Part shown: piece by piece, positions 12,394 to 45,251 of the stretch
Layout of the letters: each line of letters begins with the position of its first letter
How positions within the stretch are numbered: the first letter of the stretch is position 1
Assembly (NCBI GenBank): GCA_041656935.1
Contig: JBBACQ010000006.1
Location: 1 to 62,720 of the forward strand
Source: Patescibacteria group bacterium
Lineage (GTDB): Bacteria > Patescibacteriota > Patescibacteriia > Patescibacteriales > UBA12465
Direction: 5' to 3'
Length of the DNA stretch: 62,720 nt
Notes under the pieces: generated by a model
Databases searched by the model: none
The model's input: the letters and a program-made list of their open reading frames with translations, nothing else
What the model was told of the DNA's origin: nothing
Position numbers and translations under genes: made by a program

Positions 12394-12422
12394 GAAATTA
12401 TGATAAAAATATTAATTTTGGT

Positions 12423-14692: not shown

Positions 14693-14740
14693 ATTTTTTT
14701 ATATTAATAATTTTTCATTTTTCAAATTAATCATGGACTC

Positions 14741-14886
14741 CTGTCATTCCCGCGCAAGCGGTCTCCAGCTTTCGCTGGAGTGACAATTCACGACTGTCAT
14801 TCCCGCGCAAGCGGGAATCCCATGAGGTTTAGACTACGATGATAAATCCTGACAAGCGGGAATCCCATGAGGTTTAGACTGCGATG
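14741..14886. repeat. Cluster of REP/dRS3-like palindromic repeats (GTCATTCCCGCGCAAGCGGGAATCC family)
   Basis: CTGTCATTCCCGCGCAAGCGG at 14741 and 14794; inverted variant TGTCACTCCAGCGAAAGCTGGAG (minus, 14785-14763); 34-nt direct repeat at 14808-14841 and 14853-14886 with 1 mismatch. Confidence 0.85.
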
Positions 14887-14926
14887 TCGCATTGTGCCCC
14901 CTAGGGGTAAAATTATTCTTAAAAAA

Positions 14927-21567: not shown

Positions 21568-21576
21568 ATTTTTATT

Positions 21577-22380
21577 TTAAGGATGAGCAGATATAAAGCA
21601 TCGACCATCAGATTCCTCTTTTAATATTTTGATTTTATAGTTTATGTTGAATAAAATTTCACATAACTGATGCATATTAAAAATAGAATGAACTTCAATA
21701 AGTAAAATAGGTTTATATTTTAATAATGTTTGCATTCCGCCTCTTAAAGCTAAAAATTCAGCTCCCTCTATATCAATCTTAATAATGTCAGGTTTATCGG
21801 AGATACCTATCAAATGTAAAGAGTCTAAATTTATTGTCTTTACTTTAGATCTTTTAAATCCCATACTATTTTCGTATATTTTTTTTTCAAAAAAAGTATG
21901 AGATTTTTCAATAAAACTACCGCTACTTTTACTACTATCAACATTACTATTAAAAATAAATGCGTCCTCCCCAACTTTATCGGATATAGCAATTTCATAT
22001 ATCTTTATAATCTCACCCAATTCTTTATTTTTTTTTAATATTAGCTCAAATCTTTTTTTATTGAAAATACTAGGTTCGAAGGAAAAAACCTTTCCCATGG
22101 GACCAACTAATTTTGCAAATAACATTGAGCTATATCCAATATGAGCTCCGACATCATAAATTGTTTTTCCAATTATACTATTTTTTTTAAAATAATCAGC
22201 AAAAAAATCATCGTAATTTCCACTTATCATCTCTCGCCAAATCCCAGTATTACTAATAAATAATTTATTATTTAACAAAACGCCTCTTTTAATTGTGTGC
22301 CACTTAGGTCTATAAACTATTCTGTAAACGAGATTAACAAATATGTTGTAAATAATTGTTTTTTTTATATTTTTTAACAT
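21577..22380 (-). CDS. FkbM-family SAM methyltransferase
   Basis: YDVGAHIG.SS, FSFEP, IKIDIEGAEFLALRG, LLIEVH. Confidence 0.9.
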   Translation of the reverse strand: MLKNIKKTIIYNIFVNLVYRIVYRPKWHTIKRGVLLNNKLFISNTGIWREMISGNYDDFFADYFKKNSIIGKTIYDVGAHIGYSSMLFAKLVGPMGKVFSFEPSIFNKKRFELILKKNKELGEIIKIYEIAISDKVGEDAFIFNSNVDSSKSSGSFIEKSHTFFEKKIYENSMGFKRSKVKTINLDSLHLIGISDKPDIIKIDIEGAEFLALRGGMQTLLKYKPILLIEVHSIFNMHQLCEILFNINYKIKILKEESDGRCFISAHP

Positions 22381-22442
22381 AGAAATAAAGTTTTAATTTT
22401 TTAAAATTTTTTATAAACTTACTAATATAGTTAAACTATTTT

Positions 22443-23393
22443 TTATTTCTTTCTATACAATAGTCCCCAATTAACCAAAACCAATAGAACAAAAGTATAA
22501 ACATTTTTTATAATACCTCTCTTTAAAAAAAGTGCTACCTCCTCATCTCTTTCTGGATTTTCCTTAATCTCAGCAGGAAGCTCATAATTAATATCTCCAC
22601 TATATATTTTCTGCTCTTCGTAATTTTTATTCTTTTGCTTTTTTCTACAATTAATTCCACTACCATCGTGCCCCATATTTTTCGTCCGGCTTATAATAGG
22701 AAAAACCGAATAAGTCTTATTTAAAAACTGAAAAAGAGAAATGTAACCATCAGTATCAAGATGGTTTTTCTTTAACATATAGATTAAATTTAGAATTAAA
22801 TTATTACTAACCTTATGATATCTAAAAACTTCTTTATAATTTTTTAAAAAAGATCTAATTTCTCCTAAGGCCCTAGTTCTATTTCTAAGTATTAACATTT
22901 CCCGCTTATCTCTCCAAACTCCGGTCCCCCAAGCTCTAAAATAGACACTTTTATAAAACTGCTCCGTATATTTTTCTGGATTTTGAAGGGGGGTATTATA
23001 TCCACAAATAAAATTAATGTCATCTCGCTCTTCATAAAGGGTTAAAGCCTGATTCATAAAATATAAAAAGTCTCTAGAAAAAACATTATCATCTTCTGAC
23101 CTAATTACGCGGTCATACTTTTTGAAAACCTCTTCGTAGGCCAAAATAGCATTGTTTTTTGAACCTAAATTTACACATCTAATAAAAAGAGTAACTTCTT
23201 TAAAGCCAGAAATTTGTTTAGCATATTCAATCACCTCACTATTAGGAAGTTCGTCTTCGGGACGATAAGGAGCATCTATGGCCACAAAAAGATGAGTTTG
23301 CGAGGCTAGCTCATTTTCCTTTAAAGATTCGACGCAATTTCTAAAATGCTTGGGGCGATTATAGACTGATAATAAAACCGGGGCTATTTGCAT
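22443..23393 (-). CDS. GT-A fold sugar transferase
   Basis: APVLLSVYNRP.H, IRSEDD, WGTGVW, SRTKNMGHDGSG. Confidence 0.8.
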   Translation of the reverse strand: MQIAPVLLSVYNRPKHFRNCVESLKENELASQTHLFVAIDAPYRPEDELPNSEVIEYAKQISGFKEVTLFIRCVNLGSKNNAILAYEEVFKKYDRVIRSEDDNVFSRDFLYFMNQALTLYEERDDINFICGYNTPLQNPEKYTEQFYKSVYFRAWGTGVWRDKREMLILRNRTRALGEIRSFLKNYKEVFRYHKVSNNLILNLIYMLKKNHLDTDGYISLFQFLNKTYSVFPIISRTKNMGHDGSGINCRKKQKNKNYEEQKIYSGDINYELPAEIKENPERDEEVALFLKRGIIKNVYTFVLLVLVNWGLLYRKK

Positions 23394-23423: not shown

Positions 23424-24563
23424 TTATAAAAACATTTTTAATAAATTGGACTCATCTTTAACAACCCCGTAAACCTTAGCTCGACAAATAATTTTATAAG
23501 CCCAGGAACTATGAGGACTAATTTCATTCATCTTATTCTTACTCTCACTTTTTATTACCCCGCCCGAAGTTTTTAATATTTGTAAGGCATCTCGATATTC
23601 TTCCTCTAAGACTACTTGCATACCATTAACATACTTAATATGAGAAGGATGAATAATAGTTTTGCCGATAAAACCATTAGCCTTGTCCAAAACTATTTCT
23701 CTTAATAAACCATCTATAATATCATTTACTAAGAAATCTCTCTTAAGAAGTGATCTTTGAATCCCGCCTCTAATTTCTTCTATAGATTTAGTCTCTTTGG
23801 GAGTTAAAAAATATTCCCAAACTGGGGCTGATATTACATAATCTTGGCCTCTTCTTCCAAAAATATTTATAATATCACTTAAGCAATCCTTAACTGTAAA
23901 AATATCATAGATAGAATAATCGACCCCCCGCCTAACACCGAAAACAGAGGAAAAATCGGTTGTTCCGACCCTAATATTCAAAATATATTTTTTATAAGGT
24001 TCTAATATTTTTTTTATTTTAATTAATTCCTTAACTCTTCCCTCTTTAAAGGCTATTTTTTGGCTTTCCAAAATGGGCATTCCATAAATTATTTCTTTTT
24101 TGTCTTTGTTTAAAAAATCTAAATGCTTTAAATAAGATTTACCATTAAGGCTAGTAAACTTAGGGAAAACAAACCCCGAAATAAATTTTAAAAAATCTAA
24201 TTCTATCTTTTTTGAAAAATTTTTAAATTGTTCAACATTTCTTACTCTTAAAAATATAAGAGGAATATCATCGTAAGATATTTTCTTTAATTCTAATAGT
24301 TGAGAAAGTTTTTTAAATAAATTTAAAACATTTTTTTCTCCTTCTGCTAAATCTTTCTCTTCAATAGCATTTTCAAAACACATTACAATAGAGGTTAAAC
24401 CAAGGATCTTTTTCTCTATTATTGAATCCAAAATATCCTTAGTTGCTGGCATATACAAAGTTGCCCCTAGACAATACTGTAATAATTTCTTATCGGAATA
24501 TTTATCAAAATTTATTGGCTCTTCAATAAATTCTATGTTCTTTATATGAGCATGAAGTTTCAT
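23424..24563 (-). CDS. HpcH/HpaI aldolase / CitE citrate-lyase-family protein (Ter-operon-associated subtype)
   Basis: LGATLYMPA, MCFENAI, FLRVRN, FVFPKF, MPILES, NIRVG.TD, ISAPVWEY, GKTIIHPSH. Likely start at 24563. Confidence 0.8.
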   Translation of the reverse strand: MKLHAHIKNIEFIEEPINFDKYSDKKLLQYCLGATLYMPATKDILDSIIEKKILGLTSIVMCFENAIEEKDLAEGEKNVLNLFKKLSQLLELKKISYDDIPLIFLRVRNVEQFKNFSKKIELDFLKFISGFVFPKFTSLNGKSYLKHLDFLNKDKKEIIYGMPILESQKIAFKEGRVKELIKIKKILEPYKKYILNIRVGTTDFSSVFGVRRGVDYSIYDIFTVKDCLSDIINIFGRRGQDYVISAPVWEYFLTPKETKSIEEIRGGIQRSLLKRDFLVNDIIDGLLREIVLDKANGFIGKTIIHPSHIKYVNGMQVVLEEEYRDALQILKTSGGVIKSESKNKMNEISPHSSWAYKIICRAKVYGVVKDESNLLKMFL

Positions 24564-24574
24564 AATATTATAAT

Positions 24575-25447
24575 TTATAAAAAACAACTAGCGACCCGAG
24601 GCTCAATGATACAACACGGCCTCAAAGAAACAATTCTTACACCGCTAGCTCTTTGTGGTCCAACACATAAAAAAGTAGCCAAAACAGTGTTTCCTCCAGA
24701 TAATCCTAGAGGACCAATATTGCTTTCATTTAGTCTTTTTGTTATTTCTTTCTCTATTTTATTTTGTTTATTAAATCTACCCCTAATCATAGCTTCTAAC
24801 ATTAAAGAATTAGCCTCGTAATGAGTCCGACCAATCCCAATAGCTAAAGTACAAGGGGTACAACCAAGCCTTTTAATTTCATCTTTAGAAAGAGTTATTA
24901 TTTCATCAATAATAATTGAAATCTTACGCTGATGAAAGACCCTTTTGGTCGTTGCCCTAATTTCTGGGCCCCCACCTTGCATTAAAATATTAATTTTAAG
25001 ACCATCTTTTTTCATCTTCTTAATTCCAATTGGGGCTAATTTTAAATCACTAGATTTATGATAAAGACCCTGAGACTGCTCTATTCTCTGAATATCATTT
25101 CCCCTAACTGCCATAGGCCGACCCGGCAATTCTTCTAACCCTTTAGAAATTCCCTTTTCTATATTTTCTAATAATCTATAATCAAATTTACTATTAGGAC
25201 CGACTTCTAATAAAATATGAGGAATACCAGTATCATCACATAGGGGGGTTTTGTTTTTTTTTGCTATTTTCTCATTCTCTATAATACTTTCTAAAACCCA
25301 TTTTAATAAACCATTCTTTTCTTCCTTGACCCTATCTTTCAATAACTTTATCTTATCCGGACGAAAAGAAGAAGACGCCTTTATTAAAGTGTTTTTGATT
25401 TTTTCTATAACTAAATTATCATTTTTATTTTTCTCTGTTTTAAGCAT
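24575..25447 (-). CDS. Class I fumarate hydratase / tartrate dehydratase alpha subunit (Fe-S hydro-lyase)
   Basis: PLCDDTGIP, GGGPE, GCTPCTLAIGIG, N...IGPLGLSG..TVL, CC...R. Confidence 0.85.
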   Translation of the reverse strand: MLKTEKNKNDNLVIEKIKNTLIKASSSFRPDKIKLLKDRVKEEKNGLLKWVLESIIENEKIAKKNKTPLCDDTGIPHILLEVGPNSKFDYRLLENIEKGISKGLEELPGRPMAVRGNDIQRIEQSQGLYHKSSDLKLAPIGIKKMKKDGLKINILMQGGGPEIRATTKRVFHQRKISIIIDEIITLSKDEIKRLGCTPCTLAIGIGRTHYEANSLMLEAMIRGRFNKQNKIEKEITKRLNESNIGPLGLSGGNTVLATFLCVGPQRASGVRIVSLRPCCIIEPRVASCFL

Positions 25448-25462
25448 CTTTTTTTTATTATT

Positions 25463-25972
25463 TTAAGAAGAATAAATTGATTCACCATTGGCTATGGCTA
25501 CAATAATTGGTAATTTTTCGACTTTCAACAAGTGTAGAGCTTCCATTCCCTCTTCAGGAAAGGCTACTATTTTTTTCTCTAAAATCTTGCTAGAAAGTAA
25601 AGCTGAAATTGGTGGAACCACCGCATAAACTGAATTAAATTTTTTTAAAATTTTGACTGTTTTATCTCCAAGAGCTCCTTTCCCAAGATGAATTTTAACA
25701 CCCGCTCTAGAAAGATCAAAAAAACTAGATTCAATTTCTACTTTATTGCTAGAAGTTGGCCCTACCCCAGCAGAACTAACAGCGGTATGAAATATAACTG
25801 AACCGACTAAATTTACACCCTTTATATCTTTCTTTTTTTTTATTAAATCTACTATTTTAGGTAAAACTGAATCTCGACCAGCATAAATATAACCAGAAAT
25901 ATAAACGATATCTCGAACCGACATTTTTTTTATATCTAGATCAGAAATTGGTGTTGTTAAAATTAAAGACAT
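25463..25972 (-). CDS. Fe-S hydro-lyase beta subunit (fumarase/tartrate dehydratase C-terminal)
   Basis: LTTPIS, VYISG.IYAGRD, GPTSS, GKG, GMEAL, P.IVAI..G.SIY. Confidence 0.85.
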   Translation of the reverse strand: MSLILTTPISDLDIKKMSVRDIVYISGYIYAGRDSVLPKIVDLIKKKKDIKGVNLVGSVIFHTAVSSAGVGPTSSNKVEIESSFFDLSRAGVKIHLGKGALGDKTVKILKKFNSVYAVVPPISALLSSKILEKKIVAFPEEGMEALHLLKVEKLPIIVAIANGESIYSS

Positions 25973-25979
25973 AAAAAAA

Positions 25980-26729
25980 TTATAATTTTTTATAAATAGC
26001 TCTTAATTTCTCAATAGCTTGATCATCAATAACCGTGGAATAAATTAAATCTAAATTTTCTCTAATAATATCTTTAGGCCAGTCCCACCATTTTATTTCT
26101 TCTAGAATAGAAATGGTTTTATCATCAAACCTTTTTTTGATAGTTCTAGCCGGAACGCCCACAACAATAGAATAAGGCTCCACATCTTTTGTAACCACTG
26201 CTCCGGCCCCAATTACCGCTCCATTTCCTATTTTTAAATTTCTTAATATCGTAACATTAGACGAAATCAAAACATCATTCCCTATCAAACAAGGCTTCAT
26301 ATTTTTAAATGTTTTTTGGAGCTCTTTTTCTCTTTTCTCTTCTTGGTTTTCTGAATCTAACATATAGAATCTAGATAAAAGACTAGTTGTTAGTTTAGTG
26401 TAATCATGATTTCCTCCCCCGATTGAAACATTCCAACTTATTGAACAAAAATTACCAATATCCGCTGATCTAATTACTGTGTTCATGCCGGTATAAGTAT
26501 AATTACCGATTTTAGATCTCAATATATAATTTCTCCGATTTAAAGCTGAATTACTCTTAATAATGCTATCTTGAATAATTGTGTGGTTTCCGATACTAAC
26601 ATCTTTCTCTAGAAAACTGTTCTTTACCTCTGCCCCCTTATATATTTTAACATTTTCCTCAATGGTGCTATTTTCTACAACTACATCTTCGAAATTATTT
26701 AAATTATTTTTATCTTTTAAATTATCCAT
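25980..26729 (-). CDS. Left-handed beta-helix acyltransferase (CatB/Vat-like)
   Basis: Hexapeptide repeats; [54 protein letters not shown]. Confidence 0.9.
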
Positions 26730-26730
26730 A

Positions 26731-27987
26731 TTATTTCTTTTCTAAATTATAAATATCCTTTATCATAATAGGTTCGTTTTTAATGTTAAGAACCTCTAAT
26801 TTATTAATGGCTTCCCTAAATTTTAACCATAACCTGCTTTTATTTTTATCTTTTATAATAAAAGACCCAATTCTATTTTGTGATGAGAAATCTGAGCCAA
26901 TTTTCATTCCCTTCCCTTTATAAAAATAAATTTTTTCAATAATTTTATTTTTTTCTAGTTTTTTATAACCTAAAATCCTATTAAAAATTCCTGATCGAGC
27001 ATAAATCGTACCTATTAAAAAATAATTTTTATTATTCTTAATAGTTTTTTTATTTCTTTTATTAATTTTTAAATAGGAATCTACGGCTGTTTCTATAAAA
27101 TCGATCCCTGTTTTTAGTTTGATAACTTCGGAACTTATTCCCCCGCCCAATCTCGGGGAAAATTCAATAACATTAACTTTTTCATCTTTTATAATTAATT
27201 GGCAAAATAAAGGAGTGTTATTTAGGTTAAAAGAAATTACTATGTTATTAATTATTTCTAAAATTTCTTTTCTTGTTCTAGGTGAAACCTCAACTGGAGC
27301 CAAAGAACAATAACTCTGCATAACCGAGTCTCCTCTTTTATTAATTTTATTTTTTTTACTAATCAAGACTAAATTAACTTTAAAATTTTGGATTAAACAA
27401 TAAACCGAAAACTCATCGCCTTCTTTAAATTCCTCAATTATCGCTTTCTTAGTTCTACTCGCCTTAATTGCTAATTTTAAATATTTTTTAAGTTCAATTA
27501 GATTATTGGCCTTTCTAACACCCTTAGAGCCATTGTTATCCACTGGTTTCACTATAACGGGAAAATTTAAACCTGATTTTTTAAAGTTTAAAAGAGAAGT
27601 AAAAATAATGTATCTAGCAGTTGGAATATTATTTTCTATCATCTTTTTCTTCATTAAAGTTTTATCGGTAACTTCTTTTGCAATTTTATAACTATAGGGC
27701 GCTGGTAAACCTAGTTTTTCAGCTACATAACAAGCCGTTAAATTAGCTTGATCAACAGAAGTGCTTATCACTAAACTAGCTTTAACTTTTTTAGCGAATT
27801 CCAAGACCGCTTCTTTATCTAAAGTACTTTTTTCTATATGTTTATCAGCAAATTTTTTAGCTACTGGATTTTCTAAATAATCGACTAAAAAAACAAAGTA
27901 ACCTCTCTGCTGGAGAGATTTAATTAAGTTTATATGAGCATTGGTCCCACCTAAAACAATGGCAACTTTTTTTTTCTGACTTTCCAT
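26731..27987 (-). CDS. ATP-grasp ligase (carboxylate-amine ligase type), paralog B
   Basis: [39 protein letters not shown]. Confidence 0.88.
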
Positions 27988-27988
27988 C

Positions 27989-37937: not shown

Positions 37938-39254
37938 TTAAACTGATTTAAGACGAAAAAAATCTCGTCTGACCTTTCTAAAAAACAAAGAAAAAATAGG
38001 AACCAAAGAATAAGAAAAGACCGTAACTACTATCGCTCCAGTTATTCCCCAAATTGGGATTAATAAAATATTTAACACTATATTTATCACAGCCCCCATT
38101 AGAGTTATATAAAAATAAATTTTAAAATAACCTTCAGCTACTAAATACTGCCCAACTAAAAATCTTAAAGAAACTCCTAGCAACGACCAAACTCCAATAC
38201 CTAATATAATTGAAGAGCTCAAATACTCTGTACCAAAAAGAAAATTAATTATATATTTAGAGAAAATAGATATAGGCAATATTACAATTAAGGATAAAAT
38301 TATTAAAAAAATCATCAATTTTTTTAATCTTGATCTATAAACCTTTAAATCAACCTTCCGAGCATTCAAAACCGCTGGAAAAAGCGATAAACATATAATA
38401 CTAGGTATAAAATAAAAAAGATCTAATATCCTAACTGGAGCCGAGTATAAACCAACCGCCACCTCATTTATCATCTCCTTAATCATAACCTGATCTATTT
38501 TCATATAAATAAAAACTGAAAAACTAGTAAACATTAAAGGCCAGGAATCCGAAAACATTTTTTTTGCTAAAGACAAATCAAATTTCCAAAATTTAATTTT
38601 AAAACCAGTTCGATGATAGAAAAAAAGAAGAAATATGCCTGACCAAACATAATCTAAAACATAAACTAACATTAACCAAATAATTCCAGCTCCGGAGAAT
38701 ATTATTACAATCTTTAAAACTGAAGAAATAGAAGAAGCAATAACTTGGGCTATAACTCCCTTCTTAGCTTCAACTCTAACTTGAAAAAAAACGTCTATGA
38801 TATTAAATGATTGCAAGACAAAAGTTAAGGAACATAAAAAAACTAAACCCCTAACCAGAGGAGAACTGTCTAATAAAAAAATAGAAAAAATTGATAAAAC
38901 AATAGCCAAAGATCCTCCAATAATTTTTAAACGGAAAGAGGTTCCTAATAACTGATCTCTTTTTTCGGGAAAATTGATTAACTCTCTTTTCAAAACTCGA
39001 TCTATGCCCAAGGTAGAAACGAAGAAAAAAATTCCGGTAAAAGCTAAGGCGTAGCTTAATATTCCATAGTTTTCTGGACCTAAATATCTAATAACCCAAA
39101 CTCCAATGAAAAAAGACAAAATTAAATTAAAGGCCTGACCAAAAAACATCCAACCGGTATTACTAAAATATCTTTTGAACCCTTCATGATTCAAAATCCA
39201 GCGCCATTTCTCTGGAGTGATTTTTTCTATTTTTGAAAAAAATTTCTCTAGCAT
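37938..39254 (-). CDS. wzx: Wzx-type oligosaccharide flippase
   Basis: RYFSNTGWMF, RYLGPENYG, YMKIDQVMI, VGLYSA, NI.LN..LIP.WG..GA; ~12 TMs. Confidence 0.9.
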   Translation of the reverse strand: MLEKFFSKIEKITPEKWRWILNHEGFKRYFSNTGWMFFGQAFNLILSFFIGVWVIRYLGPENYGILSYALAFTGIFFFVSTLGIDRVLKRELINFPEKRDQLLGTSFRLKIIGGSLAIVLSIFSIFLLDSSPLVRGLVFLCSLTFVLQSFNIIDVFFQVRVEAKKGVIAQVIASSISSVLKIVIIFSGAGIIWLMLVYVLDYVWSGIFLLFFYHRTGFKIKFWKFDLSLAKKMFSDSWPLMFTSFSVFIYMKIDQVMIKEMINEVAVGLYSAPVRILDLFYFIPSIICLSLFPAVLNARKVDLKVYRSRLKKLMIFLIILSLIVILPISIFSKYIINFLFGTEYLSSSIILGIGVWSLLGVSLRFLVGQYLVAEGYFKIYFYITLMGAVINIVLNILLIPIWGITGAIVVTVFSYSLVPIFSLFFRKVRRDFFRLKSV

Positions 39255-39264
39255 TTTAAAAAAA

Positions 39265-41112
39265 TTACTTTTTATCTTTAACTATCCCCGCAACCCGATC
39301 TGAGGGGCTAATTGGCTGACCATTATCATCAACTACTTTCATTCCCCCATCAACCAAAGCGGTCTTCCACTTTATAGCTTCAGCGAACTCTTCTCGACCT
39401 TCCCATAAATAAGGGACTGGCATAATTCCATCTTTAAAGATATCGTACATACCTTGAGGAGTATATAAATCTGGATAAGCCTGTTCAATTATTTGAACTA
39501 TCTTTCTAACCTCCGATACTAAATCAGCTGTTCTTCTCTCCACTTCTTTATCTTTAGACATATCGGTCACTTCACCCTTACTTCTAGCCTGTCGGTATTC
39601 CTCTATCGCCTGTAAAGTTATTTTAATACTTTCCTCAATAATTTCTGGAGTAGCTAAACTAATTCCTTCAGAATAACTAACTACATGAACTATATCAGGG
39701 CTTAACTCATTTAAGGGATCAATATCATCCATCATAGCTGAAACACTCGCCAATTGAATTTTAGCCTTGTAGGGGTCAGGCGAGAAATAGTCTAAACCAG
39801 CTCGTGGTTGAAGAAAAGCGGAAAAATTATCATCCTCTAATTCTTTAACTAATTTTAATAGAGCTCGGCTCTTGGCTAAATCTTGGACTCCCCAGGTATA
39901 TTTAGGTGTATTTAACATATTTTGAATAACAAAATATTTTACTCCTAATTTCTTAGCTGTTTTAGCAGCCAAAAGACCTGATAGAACATAGGAATAATCA
40001 TCAGCTCCTCTAAAGGCAAAATGATGTGGGATATTAGGTTCGAAGGGCTTATTGTGATCGGCAATTATTTTAAGAGTCTCGAAGTGTTCATCTAAATTGT
40101 ATCTGACAGTATGAGGTCCCCGACCATCAATTTGGCAAAACCACCAAAAAGAAAGAGCGTGCCAAGCCATATTAATTGTTTTTTCATATAACTCAGCTAA
40201 TTGGGGAACATTTTTAGTACCAGCATAGGTACGAACCAACATCGGTCGAGAAGCTTCATAAATGTTTATTAAATCCTGTTCGGAATTAATCGGAACTCCT
40301 CCACCATTGGGCTTGTCTTTCCAATCTAGACCAAAATCTGATTGAGATAATTGACTGGAACCAATAGAAAGAATATCTAACCAGCCATCCTGAGCTAATA
40401 TTTTTATCCACTCCTGAAAATCGCGTAAGGCCTTAGCATAATCCTTGTCATAAGGACCAACATGAACTCTAATCAGAGGCAGTTGCTTGTTTTTTCTGAC
40501 ATAGCTAATTCTTTTGGCGATACTATCACTTTTAGTGCCGAAATCTTCATAACCACTTCTATCGATTGGTTTTCTATTTAGATATTCGCCACTATCAATG
40601 ATTTTTTTAGCAAAAATTAATCTTTCCTCGTCATAGGCCGATACCTCCTTGATATTTTTGGGAATTAAATCTTTTGGTATCTCAATTTTTTCCAAGGATT
40701 CAACTGAATTTTCATCTCCCCAAAAAACCAATACTTGATCGCCATAATCTTTTTTAATTTTTTTACCAGCTTCTGGTAAACCAGCAAAGTACAAACTTTT
40801 AATCTGGTTTCCCAATAACTCGTGTTTCTTTAAAAAAGAAAATAATTGGTCAAACTTAGTCTTAGCATCACCGGGATCAAGACGATAACTAAAACCTAAT
40901 CTAGTTATCTTATTATCAAGAAGCCATTTTTTTAAAACAGAGAAATTTTCTTCAGTGGGTTGGTCAAGGAATTTAACTATTTTAGAACTAGCCATCAAGG
41001 CTTCAAAACCACAATCGGTTATTAGTTTACTGATGTTTAATATTCCTAAGACATGAGCATCTAAACTGGGTTTAACAAAGCCGAAAACGTCATTTTTAGT
41101 GATTTTCTCCAT
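39265..41112 (-). CDS. Cobalamin-dependent mutase-like protein: N-terminal B12-binding domain fused to a glutamate-mutase-E-like TIM barrel
   Basis: D-A-H-V-L-G (DxHxxG base-off/His-on motif), LGFSY, YFAG. Barrel motifs NGGGVPIN, LVRTYAGT, LGVKYF, VQDLA, SYSE...AT parallel recalled GlmE segments. Confidence 0.7.
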   Translation of the reverse strand: MEKITKNDVFGFVKPSLDAHVLGILNISKLITDCGFEALMASSKIVKFLDQPTEENFSVLKKWLLDNKITRLGFSYRLDPGDAKTKFDQLFSFLKKHELLGNQIKSLYFAGLPEAGKKIKKDYGDQVLVFWGDENSVESLEKIEIPKDLIPKNIKEVSAYDEERLIFAKKIIDSGEYLNRKPIDRSGYEDFGTKSDSIAKRISYVRKNKQLPLIRVHVGPYDKDYAKALRDFQEWIKILAQDGWLDILSIGSSQLSQSDFGLDWKDKPNGGGVPINSEQDLINIYEASRPMLVRTYAGTKNVPQLAELYEKTINMAWHALSFWWFCQIDGRGPHTVRYNLDEHFETLKIIADHNKPFEPNIPHHFAFRGADDYSYVLSGLLAAKTAKKLGVKYFVIQNMLNTPKYTWGVQDLAKSRALLKLVKELEDDNFSAFLQPRAGLDYFSPDPYKAKIQLASVSAMMDDIDPLNELSPDIVHVVSYSEGISLATPEIIEESIKITLQAIEEYRQARSKGEVTDMSKDKEVERRTADLVSEVRKIVQIIEQAYPDLYTPQGMYDIFKDGIMPVPYLWEGREEFAEAIKWKTALVDGGMKVVDDNGQPISPSDRVAGIVKDKK

Positions 41113-41130
41113 ATTTTTATCATATTAATC

Positions 41131-42204
41131 TTACAAAAGTTTAATTATATCTTGAACATCTAAACCAGCTAACCCCATGTTTTCCAAAGTACGACCCTTC
41201 TCTCGGAAGTTCAAACCTAATAGGTTCTCAGAAAAAACTAGTATCGCCTCCATTATGGGTAGTTTCAAACCAGCTATCCTGCCGAGCTCTAGTAGGGGCA
41301 AAATCCCGGCCGGAATGTCTTCTGTAAAAAATCTGGAATTGATAGAGGCTGGTGATTGTAATTTAAAATAGGCCGGATTATTATTAACTCTAGATAATAA
41401 ATCTTCTCCTAAAACTCCATCGTAGGCAAAAGAAACCCAATCTTTTACTGGCTGTAATTTTAGACCATAAGCCTCGCCAATTAATAATCTTTCTTCATCT
41501 AGTTTTTCAATAAAACTAGCTACCTGGGGGGTCATATTATTATAAAAACAAAATTTATCACCACGTTCAATAAGTGAAGCGTTAAACAAAGCTAAAGCGG
41601 GATGAAGAATAGCCCCCATATTTTCTAAGGAAGTGACTAAAACGTTATCGACTGGAACAAAACAACCATATAAATCTCTAATCTTATCTATAATCACAGT
41701 TAAATCCTTAGTTGGCAAAGAAGCACAAAAAACTCTATCTTTGATTCCAAAAATTTCTACTACTCCGGGAATTTGTTGACGACAAGCATAAACCAAAGTT
41801 TGAGCTTCTACTACATAGACCTTTTTATCCAAACCATAATCATTGAATTTCTTTCTGACCTCAAAGGCCCCACCAGTTCGACCAGAGTTTAATATTATTA
41901 TTTGTCCTTCTTCTAAAAATGGTGCTAATCTTTCAGCTATTTCTCCATTGGCATCGGCCGTTGTTGTAATCATTATAATTTCAGCTCCGGCTACTACCTT
42001 GGACAAATCATCAGAAACGAAACTAACCAAACCAAAGGTTTCTATTTCTCCTTTAAGATAAACCCCACCATTTTTGATAATATTAGAAATCTTACCAAGC
42101 GAACGATTGTATAAACTAATTTGATGACCCCGCATAGCGAGATAACCAGCCATGGCCTGACCGCCGTTTCCAGCTCCAATTATAGCTACTTTGTATTTTT
42201 TCAT
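41131..42204 (-). CDS. NAD/NADP-dependent opine (octopine/nopaline) dehydrogenase family
   Basis: IIGAGNGGQAMAG, LYNRS, LN.GRTGGA, EAQTL.YACR, SL.N.GA.LHP, LD.ERL, RFFTEDIP.G. Confidence 0.9.
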   Translation of the reverse strand: MKKYKVAIIGAGNGGQAMAGYLAMRGHQISLYNRSLGKISNIIKNGGVYLKGEIETFGLVSFVSDDLSKVVAGAEIIMITTTADANGEIAERLAPFLEEGQIIILNSGRTGGAFEVRKKFNDYGLDKKVYVVEAQTLVYACRQQIPGVVEIFGIKDRVFCASLPTKDLTVIIDKIRDLYGCFVPVDNVLVTSLENMGAILHPALALFNASLIERGDKFCFYNNMTPQVASFIEKLDEERLLIGEAYGLKLQPVKDWVSFAYDGVLGEDLLSRVNNNPAYFKLQSPASINSRFFTEDIPAGILPLLELGRIAGLKLPIMEAILVFSENLLGLNFREKGRTLENMGLAGLDVQDIIKLL

Positions 42205-42213
42205 ATTATAATT

Positions 42214-42999
42214 TTATTTCTTAGAAAACGATAATAACACATTTCCATTGCCTTTATTATTAGATTTTATTGGGAAAAAGTCAAAAAACAAAAACACCGA
42301 ACTTAATAATCTAAAAAAGGAAGATTTATTAGCATTTATTCTTTTTTCATAATCTGTTTCCCCGGGATAAAAATTATATAATCGTTCAGCTATATGTTTT
42401 TGAAAAAAGTTATGTATTCTAAATGACAATAATATTTTAGAATCAACTTTTAAACCAGCTCTTTTTCCAATTTCAATATATTCATCTATTGTTCTTTTAT
42501 AAAAAGTTGCTCCCTTATAGCTACAAGAAGCTACCTGTTCAAAAATAATAAAATTACCTCCATCTAACAATTGTTCCTTAATTTTAGAAAAAATAAATAT
42601 AACTTCTTCATCGGCAATATGAGAAAAAACAAGATAAGAATACACTAAATCAGTTTCCTTTAAAATAGCAAAATTATTTTTATCAAAAATAAAGAAATCA
42701 CATTCGGGATTTAACTTTCTCGCTCTTTCTATCATGGATGTAGATATATCAACCCCAAAAAAATTAATCTTTTCTAAAAAATTTAATTTGTTTTTATAAT
42801 ATTTTATATACCAGCCATCACCACAACCAAAGTCACAGATTTTTTTAAAACTCTCTTTAAAATAAGGTAAAGTGAGAGAAAGTAATGTCTTTCTTCTTTT
42901 CACATAAAAAGGAACGGGTGTTATAGTATAAAAAGATTCTCCCCTATAATCAAATGCTTTTAGTCCTCTTTTTTCCCAATATAAGATCTCTTTATCCAT
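42214..42999 (-). CDS. Class I SAM-dependent methyltransferase
   Basis: DFGCGDG motif I, GVDIS..MI..A, LVFSHI, L..GG.F.IFE. Likely start MDKEILYW at 42999. Confidence 0.85.
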   Translation of the reverse strand: MDKEILYWEKRGLKAFDYRGESFYTITPVPFYVKRRKTLLSLTLPYFKESFKKICDFGCGDGWYIKYYKNKLNFLEKINFFGVDISTSMIERARKLNPECDFFIFDKNNFAILKETDLVYSYLVFSHIADEEVIFIFSKIKEQLLDGGNFIIFEQVASCSYKGATFYKRTIDEYIEIGKRAGLKVDSKILLSFRIHNFFQKHIAERLYNFYPGETDYEKRINANKSSFFRLLSSVFLFFDFFPIKSNNKGNGNVLLSFSKK

Positions 43000-44215
43000 A
43001 TAATCTATGCAACATGATATCTTTTTTATCATTGTTTAAAATTTTTAAATTTTTATCAGCTTTTCTTATTTTTTCTTTTAACTCTTTTTTATCTTTTGCT
43101 ACGACCATAAACCCAGCTGGTCGGTCACTACTAGCGGTATTACTAGTGATAACGCTCCCCTTGGTTTTATAAAAAAATAGTTGGTCAATTGTTCTATCTT
43201 TTAATAATTCTTTATAGCCAACTATATCTCGAAAAACACCGGGTTTGGTATAGATATAATTCATAGCCACATAATTATTGCTGGGTTTAATTTTAAAATT
43301 TAGTTTTTCCTTTAACACAACTTTTATTAAATAATCAACGACGTCAACTCCGGCCATTTTTTTTATATAATAATATTTAGAACCACCACCAACTCTGGCG
43401 CTAAACTCAATTATCGAAACTTCGTTGTTTTTAGCTATTAACTGAACTAGAAGCGGAACATTTTTTAAATCAAAAGCCTGAGCTATCTTACGAACATTTT
43501 TTTTAATTTCAGAAATTAATAGATTATTAGCTTGATAAGAAACTGAATGAACAATAGTAAAATTATTTTTTTCTTTTTTATTTTTCTTATTTTCAGAAAT
43601 TGCTAAAATTATAGGCTCTTGCCCTTGCAAAATTATATCAACTGACAATTCTCGTCCCTCCTTAAATTCTTCGATAACAACTTTTTTACTTCTACTAATT
43701 TTAATTGCTTCATCAAAGAACCTCTTTAATTGACCGAAATCTTTAGCTTTTCTAACCCCCTTAGAGCTATTAAGATCAGCTGGTTTAACAACTACTGGAT
43801 AAGTTAATTCAGCCAGTTCTTTGTTTTTAATTAATTTCTCTTTTAGGAAGATACATTTAGAGGTCGAAACTTTATTTTCTATAAATTTTTTCTTCATCAA
43901 AACCTTGTCAGTAATAGCTAGTGCTTTTTCGTAAGACAAGTAATTAGGTAATTTCATTTTTTCACTTACATAACTAACCACTGGCAAGGCCTGATCAATA
44001 CAAACAGAAATTATTAAATTAATTTTATTTTTTTTACTAATTTCTAAAACTTTGTCTTTATTATAAATATCTTCTCTTAAAAAAACATCAGCATATTTTT
44101 TTGCTGGAGGATTTTCTAAATAATCAATTAAAATAGTTTTAAAACCTCTAGACTTTAATCTTTTTAATAAATAAATATGATCATTTGTTCCTCCTAAAAC
44201 TACAACTTTTTTCAT
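42992..44215 (-). CDS. ATP-grasp ligase, paralog A
   Basis: VVLGGT..H, DK.LMK, YPVVVKP.D.NSSKGV, VIEEF.EG.E.S, IIEFSARVGGG. Confidence 0.88.
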   Translation of the reverse strand: MKKVVVLGGTNDHIYLLKRLKSRGFKTILIDYLENPPAKKYADVFLREDIYNKDKVLEISKKNKINLIISVCIDQALPVVSYVSEKMKLPNYLSYEKALAITDKVLMKKKFIENKVSTSKCIFLKEKLIKNKELAELTYPVVVKPADLNSSKGVRKAKDFGQLKRFFDEAIKISRSKKVVIEEFKEGRELSVDIILQGQEPIILAISENKKNKKEKNNFTIVHSVSYQANNLLISEIKKNVRKIAQAFDLKNVPLLVQLIAKNNEVSIIEFSARVGGGSKYYYIKKMAGVDVVDYLIKVVLKEKLNFKIKPSNNYVAMNYIYTKPGVFRDIVGYKELLKDRTIDQLFFYKTKGSVITSNTASSDRPAGFMVVAKDKKELKEKIRKADKNLKILNNDKKDIMLHRLYG

Positions 44216-44420: not shown

Positions 44421-45251
44421 TTATTTTAATTCTTTTTTCTTGCCTGGTAAAAATTTATTGCCAGAAATAACAGAACGCCCAGTTTGTTTCTCTAATTCTT
44501 TTCTAGCCTTTCCGGCAACACCACCACCCTTTTTAGCAACCTCCCTATTTTTGTTAAAAGTAACTGGTTTTTCTTTTTTGGAAATTTCTGTAGTTGAAGC
44601 TTCAGCTAACATATTTAAAACCAATTCCAAATTAGTCATATTATCACGTAAATTTTCTTTCTTTATACCTTTCACTTTTTTATATTCTTTTATTTTTATT
44701 CCTGCCCAAGCAAAAGTAATATCATCAGTTAAAATAGCAAACTTATCTGGAGTTTTTACGCCTCTTTTATCCCATTCATTAGTCAAATCTTTTCTAATTT
44801 CAATACTTTTCAACCTTAAATCAACCCAGTCCTTTGAATAGCCCTTCCTTAAGTAGGTAGCCATCGCTCTTTGAATGGCTTTCTCGGGATCTTCAACCTC
44901 CTCTACTCTTTCATAGCCGACTCTAGCTAACCAAAGCTTAAATGGCTCAGCTTTAGGAGACGGAATTGACTGAATAATACGAAAAATTGTTTCTGTATCG
45001 GCAACATCCGTTTCACGCATCTTATTATCCTCCGCCAACATTTTCAACTGTCCGATTTTTTCGGACACTTCGCTCCCTTCTTGTTTAATCTTTCTTTTTA
45101 AATCATCCCAATATTTACGAGGACGATTGTTTTGAGATAAAATTTTAACAATGTCAACTATTGAAAAATACCATTTTTCTCTTTTTTCATCCCAAACTCT
45201 TCGGATTTCTTGTCCGGAAAAAATTGCTAAATCTTTTTCTTTTTTGGTCAT
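44421..45251 (-). CDS. Bro-N domain protein (phage antirepressor-like)
   Basis: IRRVWD...EKWYFSIVD.V..L, PRKYW.DLK, QLKM.A.D.K.R.TD, IQSIPSPKAEPFKLWLA.VG.ER. Confidence 0.88.
   Translation of the reverse strand: MTKKEKDLAIFSGQEIRRVWDEKREKWYFSIVDIVKILSQNNRPRKYWDDLKRKIKQEGSEVSEKIGQLKMLAEDNKMRETDVADTETIFRIIQSIPSPKAEPFKLWLARVGYERVEEVEDPEKAIQRAMATYLRKGYSKDWVDLRLKSIEIRKDLTNEWDKRGVKTPDKFAILTDDITFAWAGIKIKEYKKVKGIKKENLRDNMTNLELVLNMLAEASTTEISKKEKPVTFNKNREVAKKGGGVAGKARKELEKQTGRSVISGNKFLPGKKKELK

Follow-up and report, generated by a model that had tools for sequence, protein, structure and literature searches.

Two Portable, Probably Acid-Forming Cassettes with Separate ATP-Grasp Ligases in a Surface-Glycan Operon of a Patescibacteria Genome

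Introduction

Opine-type groups have been found on bacterial O-antigens. In Providencia alcalifaciens O35, the O-antigen contains N-(1-carboxyethyl)alanyl-Qui4N, and N-epsilon-(1-carboxyethyl)lysine is amide-linked to GalA in O-antigens of Providencia and Proteus (PMC10609480). The preliminary description of the locus studied here noted such groups on some enterobacterial O-antigens, and the opine-acylated Qui4N of P. alcalifaciens O35 agrees with it. The pairing of a mutase gene with an opine dehydrogenase gene was predicted in 2009 without any link to glycans (PMC2667541), and our literature search found no characterisation of this pair.

Here, we explored a window of 62,720 nucleotides from a very small Patescibacteria (CPR) genome of 0.89 Mb (893-kb assembly), in which a glycan operon carries two blocks of non-sugar enzymes.

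Results and Discussion

The Operon and Its Surroundings

The operon runs on the minus strand from 44215 to 19655 and contains 22 genes in about 25 kb. The gaps between these genes range from −41 to +62 nt, and promoter-like and terminator-like matches within the operon were at the level of the shuffle background. All genes named in the preliminary description were found at their coordinates on the minus strand. Its gene list was thus correct, and the operon continues past its left boundary at 23424 to 19655. This distal end (19655–23393, minus strand, tightly spaced) encodes a 316-aa protein of no assigned family, an FkbM methyltransferase, a GT4 and a GT2 glycosyltransferase, the last three identified by Pfam.

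Five minus-strand genes lie between the two blocks. They encode a multi-spanning Wzx-type flippase (37938–39254; Pfam Polysacc_synt and Polysacc_synt_3), an FrhB-like Fe-S/flavin domain fused to a polysaccharide pyruvyl transferase (35428–37932; FrhB_FdhB_N/C, Fer4 and PS_pyruv_trans), a GT4 (34150–35415) and a GT2 (33399–34184), both assigned by Pfam, and a 332-aa protein (32435–33433). Neither the latter nor the 316-aa protein (22443–23393) has a Pfam match; the two are paralogues with 28% identity over 314 residues, and the 332-aa protein is a likely glycosyltransferase. The operon is flanked by Pfam-assigned genes for a Wzy_C plus TPR protein (14927–17203, minus strand), a Bac_transf phosphoglycosyl transferase (17267–18643, plus strand) and an NAD epimerase/dehydratase (18660–19649, plus strand).

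Close Patescibacteria relatives, with SecA 87–90% identical, retain the frr-rseP-hpf-secA-BroN synteny. Neither cassette occurs in the approximately 10 kb after secA in these relatives, and each of them has a different glycan locus there. Because they are absent at this site from relatives with the same chromosomal backbone, the cassette genes are accessory.

Cassette 1

The first gene of the operon encodes ATP-grasp ligase A (42992–44215; Pfam ATP-grasp_4, Dala_Dala_lig_C and PylC-like_N). It is followed on the same strand by a class I SAM methyltransferase (42214–43032; Methyltransf_25/12/11), which occupies an optional slot, and by an opine dehydrogenase of the Octopine_DH family (41131–42204; PF02317, E = 1 × 10−37). 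The opine dehydrogenase matches N-(1-D-carboxyethyl)-L-norvaline dehydrogenase (CENDH, PDB 1bg6) over its full length (E = 4 × 10−66). It aligns with CENDH at the His (HP) and RxFxED positions and keeps the catalytic His, Arg and Asp, which upholds the original label.

The fourth protein (P0001, 39265–41112, minus strand) is a single chain of 615 aa, recognised as B12-type mutase-like by motif and predicted fold. It has no sequence match in Pfam, NCBIfam or PDB. Its N-terminal region carries DAHVLG, a DxHxxG motif, of which D18, H20 and G23 are invariant across 27 homologues. The best Foldseek match of its AF2 model (pLDDT 85) was the glutamate mutase epsilon subunit (1cb7_B, E = 1.8 × 10−12), followed by lysine and ornithine aminomutases and IcmF. 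This bears out the glutamate-mutase fold behind the earlier term "B12-dependent mutase-like". On the model, P0001 appears to combine a DxHxxG Rossmann domain, the predicted B12 domain, with a GlmE-like TIM barrel in one chain.

We investigated the neighbours of this mutase gene in the 42 loci whose upstream DNA was long enough. An opine dehydrogenase was present in 39/42, a DegT aminotransferase in 22/42 and an A-type ligase in 19/42. Five polysaccharide loci (L001–L003, L089 and L090), among them that of Polaribacter sp. MSW13, share the order Wzx, DegT, ATP-grasp, optional slot, opine dehydrogenase, mutase and GT2, with RmlA, RmlB or RmlC-like genes close to such loci. Their ligases are 43–46% identical to ligase A. 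The optional slot is filled by a methyltransferase in the Polaribacter locus L001 and by a GNAT in both L003 and L090; it is empty in L002 and L089. Roughly half of the mutase–opine dehydrogenase pairs sampled, of which L095 is an example, lie outside glycan loci and have no DegT or ligase; thus, the product of the pair is not intrinsically a glycan substituent.

Cassette 2

The second block, again on the minus strand, begins with the gene of a DegT aminotransferase, described further below, which is followed by that of a PrpD-fold enzyme (29924–31300; Pfam MmgE_PrpD_N and _C). The latter was previously called PrpD, and the fold is correct, but its PDB matches place it in the IRG1/CAD/IDS-epimerase subgroup (Bacillus subtilis IRG1, 6 × 10−39; iminodisuccinate (IDS) epimerase, 1 × 10−28; cis-aconitate decarboxylase (CAD), 3 × 10−24; true PrpD, 1 × 10−6), and it scores under every PrpD equivalog cut-off in NCBIfam. 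The next protein is the marker of the cassette (28999–29886, with the ORF extending to 29976). Judging by the length of its homologues, about 297 aa, its true start is likely M31, at 29886. The name "U32-like" reflects a PF01136 match that spans 58 residues only. This TIM-barrel-like protein is 67–77% identical across phyla, has about 5000 protein clusters and contains 116 residues that are at least 95% conserved; its AF2 model is poor (pLDDT 60), and Foldseek gave generic barrels only.

A D-isomer-specific 2-hydroxyacid dehydrogenase follows (27989–28960; 2-Hacid_dh_C, E = 7 × 10−59), whose closest PDB entries are PGDH, glyoxylate reductase and McyI. Next come the Pfam-assigned ATP-grasp ligase B (26731–27987), which is 44–51% identical to other cassette-2 ligases, and an accessory hexapeptide-repeat acyltransferase (25980–26729; Hexapep), closest in PDB to CatB-/Vat-type xenobiotic O-acetyltransferases (E = 2 × 10−29). 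The beta (25463–25972; Fumerase_C) and alpha (24575–25447; Fumerase) subunits of a split, fumarase-type class-I (Fe-S) hydro-lyase are encoded downstream, and C70, C196 and C279 of the alpha subunit are conserved in 44 such subunits. The last gene encodes a C-C bond lyase (23424–24587). Described earlier as CitE/HpcH-like, it is indeed a citrate-lyase-beta-like TIM barrel, but its family is specifically PF15617 (E = 2.5 × 10−114); NCBIfam models of CitE and RipC reach only E = 0.0035, and no sequence match was found in PDB.

At least 574 species genomes from many phyla carry this cassette. In a sample of 59 loci, also from many phyla, the TIM-barrel protein was present in 59/59, the PrpD-like enzyme and PF15617 in 53/59 each, the ATP-grasp ligase in 51/59 and DegT in 47/59; the hexapeptide acyltransferase occurred in only 7/59. 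The settings are capsule (Wzx/Wzy) or flagellin-glycan loci. For example, the cassette is accompanied by Maf, NeuB, RmlA and RmlB in Tissierella simiarum, adjoins flagellin in Vreelandella nigrificans and lies in a Wzx/Wzy cluster of the Eubacterium segne type. Neither cassette could be tied to an organism whose glycan structure has been solved, and the paper on the Tenacibaculum maritimum O-antigen cluster does not mention the cassette genes.

Two positions in cassette 2 are interchangeable. The redox slot holds a TPP decarboxylase with an aldo-keto reductase in 17 loci (the decarboxylase alone in 2 more), Ldh_2 alone in 17 and a D-2-hydroxyacid dehydrogenase alone in 16, and the TPP enzyme never occurs together with either dehydrogenase in the 59 loci. 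This pattern suggests that an intermediate is a 2-oxo acid. In the lyase slot, 42 loci have Fum alpha and beta and 11 have an ADSL-like lyase with a PF04199 cyclase-family hydrolase, never both, which suggests that one step acts on an unsaturated dicarboxylate.

Two Separable Cassettes

Many genomes that are unrelated to one another carry one or the other block as a conserved cassette, so the grouping of the genes is not due to chance. The two blocks were never found within 10 kb of each other (0/59 block-2 loci and 0/42 block-1 loci), and no opine dehydrogenase or mutase was present in the 54 cassette-2 loci of at least 15 kb. The non-sugar enzymes are therefore two independent, portable cassettes and not one pathway. 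The ligases tell the same story. Ligase A shares 41% identity with ligase B; in the tree, A falls within the cassette-1 clade (SH-aLRT 99) and B groups with the cassette-2 ligases. Only 2 label changes were observed, compared with 12.6 in shuffles, and a value as low was reached in 0/500 shuffles. The analysis thus shows the gene content, the families and folds assigned to the proteins, how modular the cassettes are and how they are distributed, and that the two ligases differ in ancestry.

In other phyla both blocks adjoin DegT, Wzx, glycosyltransferases, RmlA/RmlB or flagellin genes, which favours the original proposal of glycan tailoring over catabolism. A lack of co-occurrence with glycan loci elsewhere had been named as the refuting outcome, and co-occurrence was found for both blocks. 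The statement that no characterized pathway has this combination is also correct, but the combination is not confined to this genome, given the spread of block 2 and the published prediction of the block-1 pairing.

Proposed Supply of the Amino Sugar

The operon encodes a DegT/DnrJ/EryC1 sugar aminotransferase (31312–32442, minus strand; PF01041, E = 2 × 10−101), which tblastn found to be the only DegT-family gene of the assembly. RmlA and RmlB are encoded elsewhere in the genome, on contig C1. The DegT had been named VioA. Its family is right, but it lies under every NCBIfam equivalog cut-off; the best match is DesI-type, with 282 bits against a cut-off of 650 bits. The DegTs of other cassette loci are 27–57% identical to it and vary in subtype; thus, the acceptor sugar is not fixed.

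Proposed Pathway and Alternatives

We consider that two independent cassettes N-acylate the 6-deoxy amino sugar of a Wzx-flipped glycan with two different acids, and we give this reading a probability of about 0.6. The operon would build an undecaprenyl-linked surface glycan that is flipped by Wzx, with the 6-deoxy amino sugar supplied by RmlA, RmlB and the single DegT. The two cassettes would have been acquired separately, each with its own acid and its own amide ligase. For cassette 1, the B12-type isomerase and the CENDH-like dehydrogenase may form a rearranged N-(1-carboxyalkyl) amino acid of opine type, which ligase A would join to the sugar amine as an amide, and the methyltransferase could cap a remaining N or O. 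For cassette 2, the PF15617 lyase, PrpD-fold enzyme, TIM-barrel protein and Fe-S hydro-lyase may produce a 2-oxo polycarboxylic acid, by C-C bond formation and then dehydration, decarboxylation or hydration. Its reduction by the dehydrogenase would give a D-2-hydroxy acid, a free carboxylate of which ligase B would link to the sugar amine, and the CatB/Vat-like transferase would probably O-acetylate the new hydroxyl. Every substrate, the step order, the acceptor and the B12 dependence are inferred.

In the methylaspartate pathway, glutamate mutase acts first, mesaconase second and citramalate lyase after it. This succession underlies a joint pathway, in which both blocks act on C5 branched acids, or the block-2 acid is amide-linked to the block-1 amine, to give a single composite substituent; the C5 route would lead from glutamate through 3-methylaspartate and mesaconate to citramalate. 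One DegT in the genome facing two ligases is what a joint pathway could explain, and so is the paralogy of the ligases. The methyltransferase/GNAT slot suggests a modifiable amine on the cassette-1 acyl group, and McyI, which the dehydrogenase resembles, belongs to the methylaspartate route. However, the blocks do not co-occur in the sampled loci, each has its own DegT and ligase elsewhere, the ligases sit in separate clades without local duplication, and that pathway's canonical enzymes do not include the PrpD-fold enzyme or PF15617. We thus regard a joint pathway as unlikely, and the C5 sequence of the preliminary description is not supported.

It is quite improbable that the ligases work in the other direction, using the amine of a cassette-made amino acid or opine to amidate a glycan carboxyl on a uronic acid or a pyruvate ketal, although ATP-grasp chemistry allows either orientation, the pyruvyl transferase of the operon creates glycan carboxylates, and O-antigens are known to bear carboxyl-linked amino acids and carboxyethyl-lysine (PMC10609480). 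Outside the core genes, no neighbour accompanies both cassettes as constantly as DegT, which usually adjoins the ligase, and this is expected only if a sugar amine is the acceptor; moreover, the window ORFs scanned include no UDP-glucose dehydrogenase, and cassette 2 has no amine-providing step. A soluble product (an osmolyte, a metallophore-like opine or an organic acid), or a remnant of central or catabolic acid metabolism inside the glycan operon, is very improbable. It would suit the mutase–opine dehydrogenase pairs that occur without glycan genes, the glycan-free prediction of 2009 (PMC2667541), and the annotation of CPR homologues of PrpD and fumarate hydratase as TCA or methylcitrate enzymes (PMC5220378). 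Yet the genes are translationally packed between a flippase and glycosyltransferases, glycan or flagellin loci of various phyla contain the same cassettes, and catabolism is hard to reconcile with a PrpD-fold enzyme below all PrpD cut-offs, a lyase that is not CitE and the accessory nature of the genes.

Conclusions

Each cassette probably makes an unusual acid and attaches it to an amino sugar. With one DegT and two ligases in this genome, both acids may vie for a single amine, each may sit on a residue of its own, or one may be attached to the other.

Organization of the Glycan Operon

The locus is probably a system for N-acyl tailoring of amino sugars of the kind found in surface-glycan loci, and it is built from two widespread cassettes. 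What the window adds is the presence of both cassettes in one operon of a CPR genome of less than 1 Mb. The assembly comprises 893 kb in 22 contigs with about 31% G+C, and the window is its contig C6. The SecA of the window was 87–90% identical to proteins labelled Patescibacteria group bacterium, with Candidatus Falkowbacteria among the remoter matches. Twenty-two genes run on the minus strand from 44215 to 19655 with intergenic gaps of −41 to +62 nt, and because of this spacing we read them as a single operon. Promoter- and terminator-like matches within 44215–19655 were at the level of shuffled sequence and gave no usable boundaries; the terminator-like ones were intragenic.

Every gene named in the preliminary description was found in the window. 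Cassette 1 (39265–44215, minus strand) encodes an ATP-grasp ligase (ligase A, 42992–44215), a SAM methyltransferase, an opine dehydrogenase and a 615-aa mutase-like protein. Cassette 2 (23424–32442, minus strand) encodes a DegT-family sugar aminotransferase, a PrpD-fold enzyme, a TIM-barrel protein, a D-2-hydroxyacid dehydrogenase, a second ATP-grasp ligase (ligase B, 26731–27987), a hexapeptide transferase, the beta and alpha subunits of a hydro-lyase and a PF15617 lyase. Between them lie genes for Wzx, an FrhB-pyruvyltransferase fusion, a GT4, a GT2 and a protein without an assigned family. The operon continues past the left boundary first proposed for it, with one gene without an assigned family, an FkbM methyltransferase, a GT4 and a GT2. 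Upstream are the housekeeping genes holB, a BNR protein gene, frr, rseP, hpf and secA, and then a Bro-N gene. Downstream are a convergent phosphoglycosyl transferase and epimerase, followed by a Wzy_C+TPR protein and three pilin-like genes.

The ORF at 35428–37932 (834 aa) carries two Fe-S motifs and FrhB_FdhB_N/C domains fused to a polysaccharide pyruvyl transferase. The products of 22443–23393 and 32435–33433 are paralogues (28% identity over 314 residues, no Pfam match), and both begin with a YNRP motif typical of GT-A-like enzymes. Judging from this start, they are probably glycosyltransferases of an uncharacterised type.

The Wzy_C+TPR gene (14927–17203) is directly upstream of the three tandem pilin-like genes on the same strand (region 11323–17203), which have N_methyl, T2SSG and Fib_succ_major domains. 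Given this adjacency, the glycan could be transferred to pilins by an O-oligosaccharyltransferase of the PglL/TfpO type, rather than necessarily being polymerised.

The Mutase-Like Protein and Opine Dehydrogenase of Cassette 1

The Rossmann-like N-terminal domain of the 615-aa protein contains the motif D18-A-H20-V-L-G23 (DAHVLG), which is the DxHxxG motif of base-off/His-on cobalamin proteins. D18, H20 and G23 were invariant in an alignment of 27 homologues (53–63% identity). In the AlphaFold model (pLDDT 85, pTM 0.88), this domain, with beta-alpha alternation across residues 9–130, is followed by a barrel. A Foldseek search of the PDB with the model gave the glutamate mutase epsilon subunit as the top match (1cb7_B, E = 1.8e-12, TM 0.62 on the target), and the next matches (chains 6h9e_B, 1xrs_A, 3kow_A and 4xc8_B) included lysine 5,6-aminomutase, ornithine 4,5-aminomutase and IcmF. 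By this comparison the protein has a substrate TIM barrel of the GlmE/KamD kind. No Pfam family, including PF02310 and PF06368, was matched even at E = 10, and no NCBIfam model was matched. Against PDB chains, a single-sequence search found no mutase and a profile search from the alignment gave chance matches only. Thus, the fold and the motif agree with the original label of B12 mutase-like, but no sequence-level match places the protein in a known family.

Glutamate mutase (GlmS/GlmE or MutS/MutE, EC 5.4.99.1, PDB 1cb7/6h9e) shares the barrel and the DxHxxG His-on motif with the window protein. However, the two are only 15–16% identical, and the window protein does not match the PDB chains or Pfam models of glutamate mutase at the sequence level. 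Glutamate mutase has two subunits, whereas the window protein joins both parts in one chain, in S-E order, and is paired with an opine dehydrogenase. We regard it as a candidate for a new B12-dependent isomerase. Among the scored candidates, its homologues made up about 3000 protein clusters, many with a Bacteroidota label.

The opine dehydrogenase matched PF02317 in its helical domain (E = 1e-37) and NAD_binding_2 in its N-terminal Rossmann domain (E = 5e-9). It is a full-length relative of CENDH, the N-(1-D-carboxyethyl)-L-norvaline dehydrogenase of Arthrobacter (PDB 1bg6; E = 4e-66, residues 6–351). In the HMMER alignment, "lHP" of the query falls on "mHP" of CENDH ending at 203, and "RFFTED" falls on "RYFFED" at 292–297. 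The His and Arg/Asp positions are therefore aligned with His202, Arg292 and Asp297, which we take to be the catalytic residues of CENDH. CENDH stands alone, with free hydrophobic amino acids and pyruvate as its substrates, whereas in the window the enzyme shares an operon with a mutase, a ligase and a sugar aminotransferase.

In the O-antigen carried by Providencia alcalifaciens O35, N-[(S)-1-carboxyethyl]-L-alanyl (alanopine) is amide-linked to Qui4N, a 4-amino-4,6-dideoxyhexose (PMC10609480). This substituent, an opine-type acid on an amino sugar, illustrates the type of product that cassette 1 is predicted to make. Since alanopine-Qui4N needs no carbon-skeleton or amino mutase, the product of cassette 1 is expected to differ from it.

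Distribution of Cassette 1

Block 1 is a portable cassette. Five contexts were read, three on metagenome contigs, one in a 2.7-Mb genome and one in Polaribacter sp. MSW13, and all share one arrangement. It runs Wzx, DegT, ATP-grasp, a methyltransferase, a GNAT or nothing, opine dehydrogenase, mutase and GT2, and RmlA-, RmlB- or RmlC-type genes were nearby. Co-occurrence was counted up to 10 kb on each side of the marker gene in loci sampled as the best-scoring 80 of larger sets. Forty-two loci, 37 of which came from a metagenome scan, extended 4.5 kb or more upstream of the mutase gene. The mutase was accompanied by the opine dehydrogenase in 39/42, by DegT in 22/42 and by an A-type ligase in 19/42; the rest were mutase-dehydrogenase pairs without glycan genes and a few orphans.

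In another locus (L095, 9260–17651), a mutase homologue of 59% identity has neither an opine dehydrogenase nor a ligase or DegT in its vicinity. Its neighbours are a flavodoxin-like gene and two TonB-dependent receptors, a setting that may relate to corrinoid uptake.

Zhang, Rodionov, Gelfand and Gladyshev (BMC Genomics 2009; PMC2667541) predicted a new family of B12-dependent proteins with a distant B12-binding domain at the N-terminus. Its genes always adjoined a PF02317 octopine/nopaline dehydrogenase, and D-Ala-D-Ala-ligase-type (ATP-grasp) genes were nearby. The gene arrangement is alike in the window and in the 39 sampled loci with the pair, and we tentatively equate the window mutase with this family of 11 proteins by its description. 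However, the 2009 paper gave no glycan context, glutamate-mutase fold or function, whereas the pair in the window is embedded among DegT, Wzx and glycosyltransferases. Our literature searches found no characterisation of the mutase-opine dehydrogenase family since that prediction.

Enzymes of Cassette 2

The DegT protein, called VioA in the preliminary description, had a strong Pfam match, and its best NCBIfam model was of the DesI type (282 bits against a cut-off of 650 bits). The closest solved relatives of the PrpD-fold enzyme are B. subtilis IRG1 (E = 6e-39), iminodisuccinate epimerase (1e-28) and cis-aconitate decarboxylases (3e-24, about 1e-24); true PrpD followed at 1e-6. The enzyme fell below the cut-offs of the PrpD equivalogs, with 48.7 bits for TIGR02330 (cut-off 458) and 61.5 for PRK09425 (cut-off 575). 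Accordingly, the PrpD fold named in the preliminary description holds, but the enzyme is distant from true 2-methylcitrate dehydratase. To our knowledge, neither the IRG1/cis-aconitate decarboxylase family nor the iminodisuccinate epimerase family has been reported from glycan loci. Homologous PrpD and fumarase genes of another CPR genome have been read as parts of the TCA/methylcitrate cycle (PMC5220378); we rejected this reading here because of the operon context and the failed equivalog cut-offs.

The C-C lyase is a full-length member of PF15617 (E = 2.5e-114). It matched TIGR01588 (CitE) and RipC only at E = 0.0035 over 50 residues, and a sequence search against PDB chains gave no match; it belongs to a separate family, which refines the CitE/HpcH-like label first given to it. 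According to Pfam descriptions, PF15617 lyases also occur with PF15632 ATP-grasp proteins in modules linked to Ter operons, and both window ligases match ATPgrasp_Ter weakly. Although the lyase family is shared, the window lacks Ter, PRTase and HAD genes and has DegT, PrpD-fold, Fe-S hydro-lyase and TIM-barrel partners in glycan loci.

The hydro-lyase has separate alpha (PF05681) and beta (PF05683) subunits, as in the two-subunit type of class I fumarase/tartrate dehydratase. C70, C196 and C279 of the alpha subunit were at least 95% conserved in 44 alpha subunits, and these three residues fit the ligands expected for a putative Fe-S cluster. The hexapeptide transferase is nearest to O-acetyltransferases of the CatB and Vat types.

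The TIM-barrel protein had been called U32-like. It matched the U32 profile over only 58 residues (162–219 on positions 31–88 of 233, 25 bits), which is not a full-length domain. Its conserved cysteines are C141 and C182 only, C176 being M or T in homologues, so that a conserved Cys cluster is absent as well. Conservation is otherwise extreme: in 63 sequences, 116 of the 295 positions were conserved at 95% or more. A sequence search against PDB chains gave no match. The AF2 model was poor (pLDDT 60), its 22-sequence alignment probably being too uniform, and Foldseek with this model returned only generic TIM barrels (TM 0.3–0.4), which we disregarded. It is a beta/alpha protein of no assigned function.

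Distribution and Interchangeable Slots of Cassette 2

The TIM-barrel protein has about 5000 homologous clusters at 72–76% identity, and its identity between Patescibacteria and Bacillota, Bacteroidota, Spirochaetota and Proteobacteria is 67–77%. When one genome per species was scanned, at least 574 species carried it. The carriers included Spirochaetota, Bacillota, Bacteroidota, Desulfobacterota, Verrucomicrobiota, Gammaproteobacteria, Fibrobacterota, Cloacimonadota and others. Common gut Lachnospiraceae also have the protein, and cultivable carriers of cassette 2 include Tissierella simiarum MSJ-40, Vreelandella nigrificans MBT G8648, Eubacterium segne BX4, Mediterraneibacter massiliensis, Desulfobacter latus AcRS2 and Pleomorphovibrio marinus SW125.

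We clustered the same-strand ORFs around the TIM-barrel gene in 59 loci, and obtained a core with two interchangeable slots. The core consists of the TIM-barrel protein (59/59), the PrpD-fold enzyme (53/59) and the PF15617 lyase (53/59); an ATP-grasp was present in 51/59 and DegT in 47/59. The lyase slot held Fum alpha and beta in 42 loci and an ADSL-like Lyase_1 with a PF04199 cyclase-family hydrolase in 11, and these two options were never found together. This points to a hydration or elimination on an unsaturated dicarboxylate. The redox slot held a TPP decarboxylase with an aldo-keto reductase in 17 loci (the decarboxylase alone in two more), Ldh_2 alone in 17, a D-2-hydroxyacid dehydrogenase alone in 16 and both of these dehydrogenases in four. 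The TPP enzyme never occurred alongside either dehydrogenase.

The exclusivity in the redox slot is the strongest mechanistic clue. Because its three mutually exclusive options all act on a 2-oxo group, they indicate that the core product is a 2-oxo acid. Since the amide ligase must still act after decarboxylation, the acid should bear at least one further carboxylate. The versions with D-2-hydroxyacid dehydrogenase, Ldh_2 and TPP decarboxylase plus aldo-keto reductase would be predicted to turn one skeleton into a D-2-hydroxy acid, an L-2-hydroxy acid and an omega-hydroxy acid shorter by one carbon, respectively.

In four loci (L069, L072, L079 and L085), Ldh_2 and 2-hydroxyacid dehydrogenase both accompany the TIM-barrel protein, the PrpD-fold enzyme and Fum alpha/beta, and PF15617, ATP-grasp and DegT are mostly missing. 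They may represent a non-glycan version of the core, possibly catabolic or for a free acid.

The contexts of cassette 2 are glycan loci. In Tissierella simiarum it lies in an island of the flagellin-glycosylation type with Maf, NeuB, RmlA and RmlB, the locus of Vreelandella nigrificans abuts flagellin, and Wzx/Wzy clusters hold the cassette in a gut bacterium of the Eubacterium segne type and in Pedobacter. In some Bacillota loci the cassette-2 ligase has a second ligase of the ATPgrasp_ST family (PF14397) as its companion; this was seen in locus L087 (10897–12042) and in 8/59 cassette-2 loci. It suggests an acyl group lengthened by one more residue in such loci.

Our literature searches found no characterisation of either cassette, and neither could be linked to an organism whose glycan structure has been solved. 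None of the cassette genes was mentioned in a Providencia O-antigen preprint or in the Tenacibaculum maritimum O-antigen cluster paper. We considered cassette 2 as the source of the (S)-2-hydroxyglutaryl-QuiNAc4N of T. maritimum, and did not retain it since that cluster was described without these genes.

Separate Ancestry of the Ligases and Variability of the Locus

Ligases A and B each match several ATP-grasp Pfam families and have the ATP-grasp fold together with pre-ATP-grasp and C-terminal domains; the PDB relatives of ligase A are 4dim and the L-amino acid ligase 3vot. The two are 41% identical to each other, and both have their closer similarity to the ligases of their respective cassettes. 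When 56 ligases were placed in a maximum-likelihood tree, ligase A fell in a group of cassette-1 ligases (SH-aLRT 99) and ligase B among the cassette-2 ligases. The cassette label changed twice on this tree against 12.6 times in shuffles, and none of 500 shuffles was as low. Thus, the "twin" ligases came with their cassettes, and local duplication as their origin was rejected.

The backbone frr-rseP-hpf-secA-BroN is also present in two close relatives, whose SecA proteins are 90% and 87% identical. In the approximately 10 kb read after secA in each, neither cassette was found and a different glycan locus was present; one of them has fragments of a Wzx homologous to that of the window. The locus is therefore a variable surface-glycan region. 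The presence of both cassettes here and their absence at the syntenic site read in two relatives suggest horizontally exchanged surface variation. The cassettes were probably acquired horizontally, with G+C now close to that of the genome.

The Bro-N domain gene (44421–45251) marks the border at which the conserved secA backbone gives way to the variable glycan region, and its position is kept in both relatives. In the 87% relative (L091, 10896–18260), Bro-N is separated from the glycan genes by genes for AAA_28, PspC, Fic and AbiEii. Its Wzx homologue is split across three reading frames, with pieces 48–70% identical to the Wzx of the window, and may be a decaying flippase gene.

Proposed Pathway and Alternatives

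By tblastn against its own genome, in which DegT, RmlA/RmlB and paralogues were sought, RmlA and RmlB homologues were found on contig C1. We infer that RmlA, RmlB and DegT would produce a dTDP-amino-6-deoxyhexose as the acceptor. In cassette 1, the mutase, presumably using B12, and the opine dehydrogenase would form a rearranged N-carboxyalkyl amino acid of the opine type, which ligase A would attach to the amine of the sugar. The variable methyltransferase/GNAT slot suggests an amine that is still open to modification. The core of cassette 2 would make a 2-oxo polycarboxylate; in the version of the window it would be reduced to a D-2-hydroxy acid, coupled by ligase B and afterwards probably O-acetylated. 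Glycan assembly and export would follow, through the glycosyltransferases, the pyruvyl transferase, Wzx and the Wzy_C protein. The data establish the gene families, how modular and how widely distributed the cassettes are, and the separate descent of the ligases; each substrate, the acceptor, the sequence of steps and the use of B12 are predicted.

Pyrrolysine biosynthesis (PylB/PylC/PylD) combines amino acid rearrangement by a radical mutase, amide formation on an amine by an ATP-grasp ligase, and a dehydrogenase. The combination in the window is alike by analogy only, and both of its ligases match PylC models weakly. However, PylB belongs to the radical SAM enzymes and not to those using B12, PylD falls outside the opine dehydrogenases, and the acceptor is lysine rather than a sugar.

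The preliminary description was right in its gene content and in glycan tailoring; its single pathway gives way to two independent cassettes. It had joined the blocks through the sequence glutamate mutase, mesaconase and citramalate lyase, and this link is unsupported, as the blocks are distributed independently: none of 54 block-2 loci of at least 15 kb contained block-1 genes, and block-2 genes occurred in 0/42 mutase loci within 10 kb of the marker. In the window, a distance of 8 kb separates the two cassettes within a single operon, and the one DegT-family gene detected in the genome by tblastn is shared by both. In such a one-DegT genome the two acids could form one composite substituent, which we consider improbable beside the separate distribution of the cassettes and the separate ancestry of their ligases. 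We tentatively favor a reading with two products. In a bolder version of it, at a probability of about 0.3, cassette 1 would contain a new class of AdoCbl isomerase in an obligate pair with the opine dehydrogenase, and the N-carboxyalkyl amino acid that they make would be branched or rearranged. In cassette 2, the TIM-barrel protein would found a new family making a 2-oxo polycarboxylate, and both products would be together on one surface glycan, possibly a pilin glycan.

Biological Implications

N-acyl decoration of amino sugars largely sets the antigenic and receptor identity of bacterial surface glycans, and we know of no underlying genes for most exotic acyl groups. The assignment of the B12-type mutase family predicted in 2009 would add a reaction to the short list of cobalamin-dependent isomerases, and because the cassettes have cultivable carriers, their chemistry is open to direct testing. 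The bacterium of the window is ultra-small and probably host-dependent. If this bolder reading with two products is true, a 0.89-Mb CPR cell, presumably scavenging B12 and most precursors, spends about 2.8% of its genome on two acidic decorations, and these would sit on the contact surface of an ultra-reduced, probably host-dependent bacterium.
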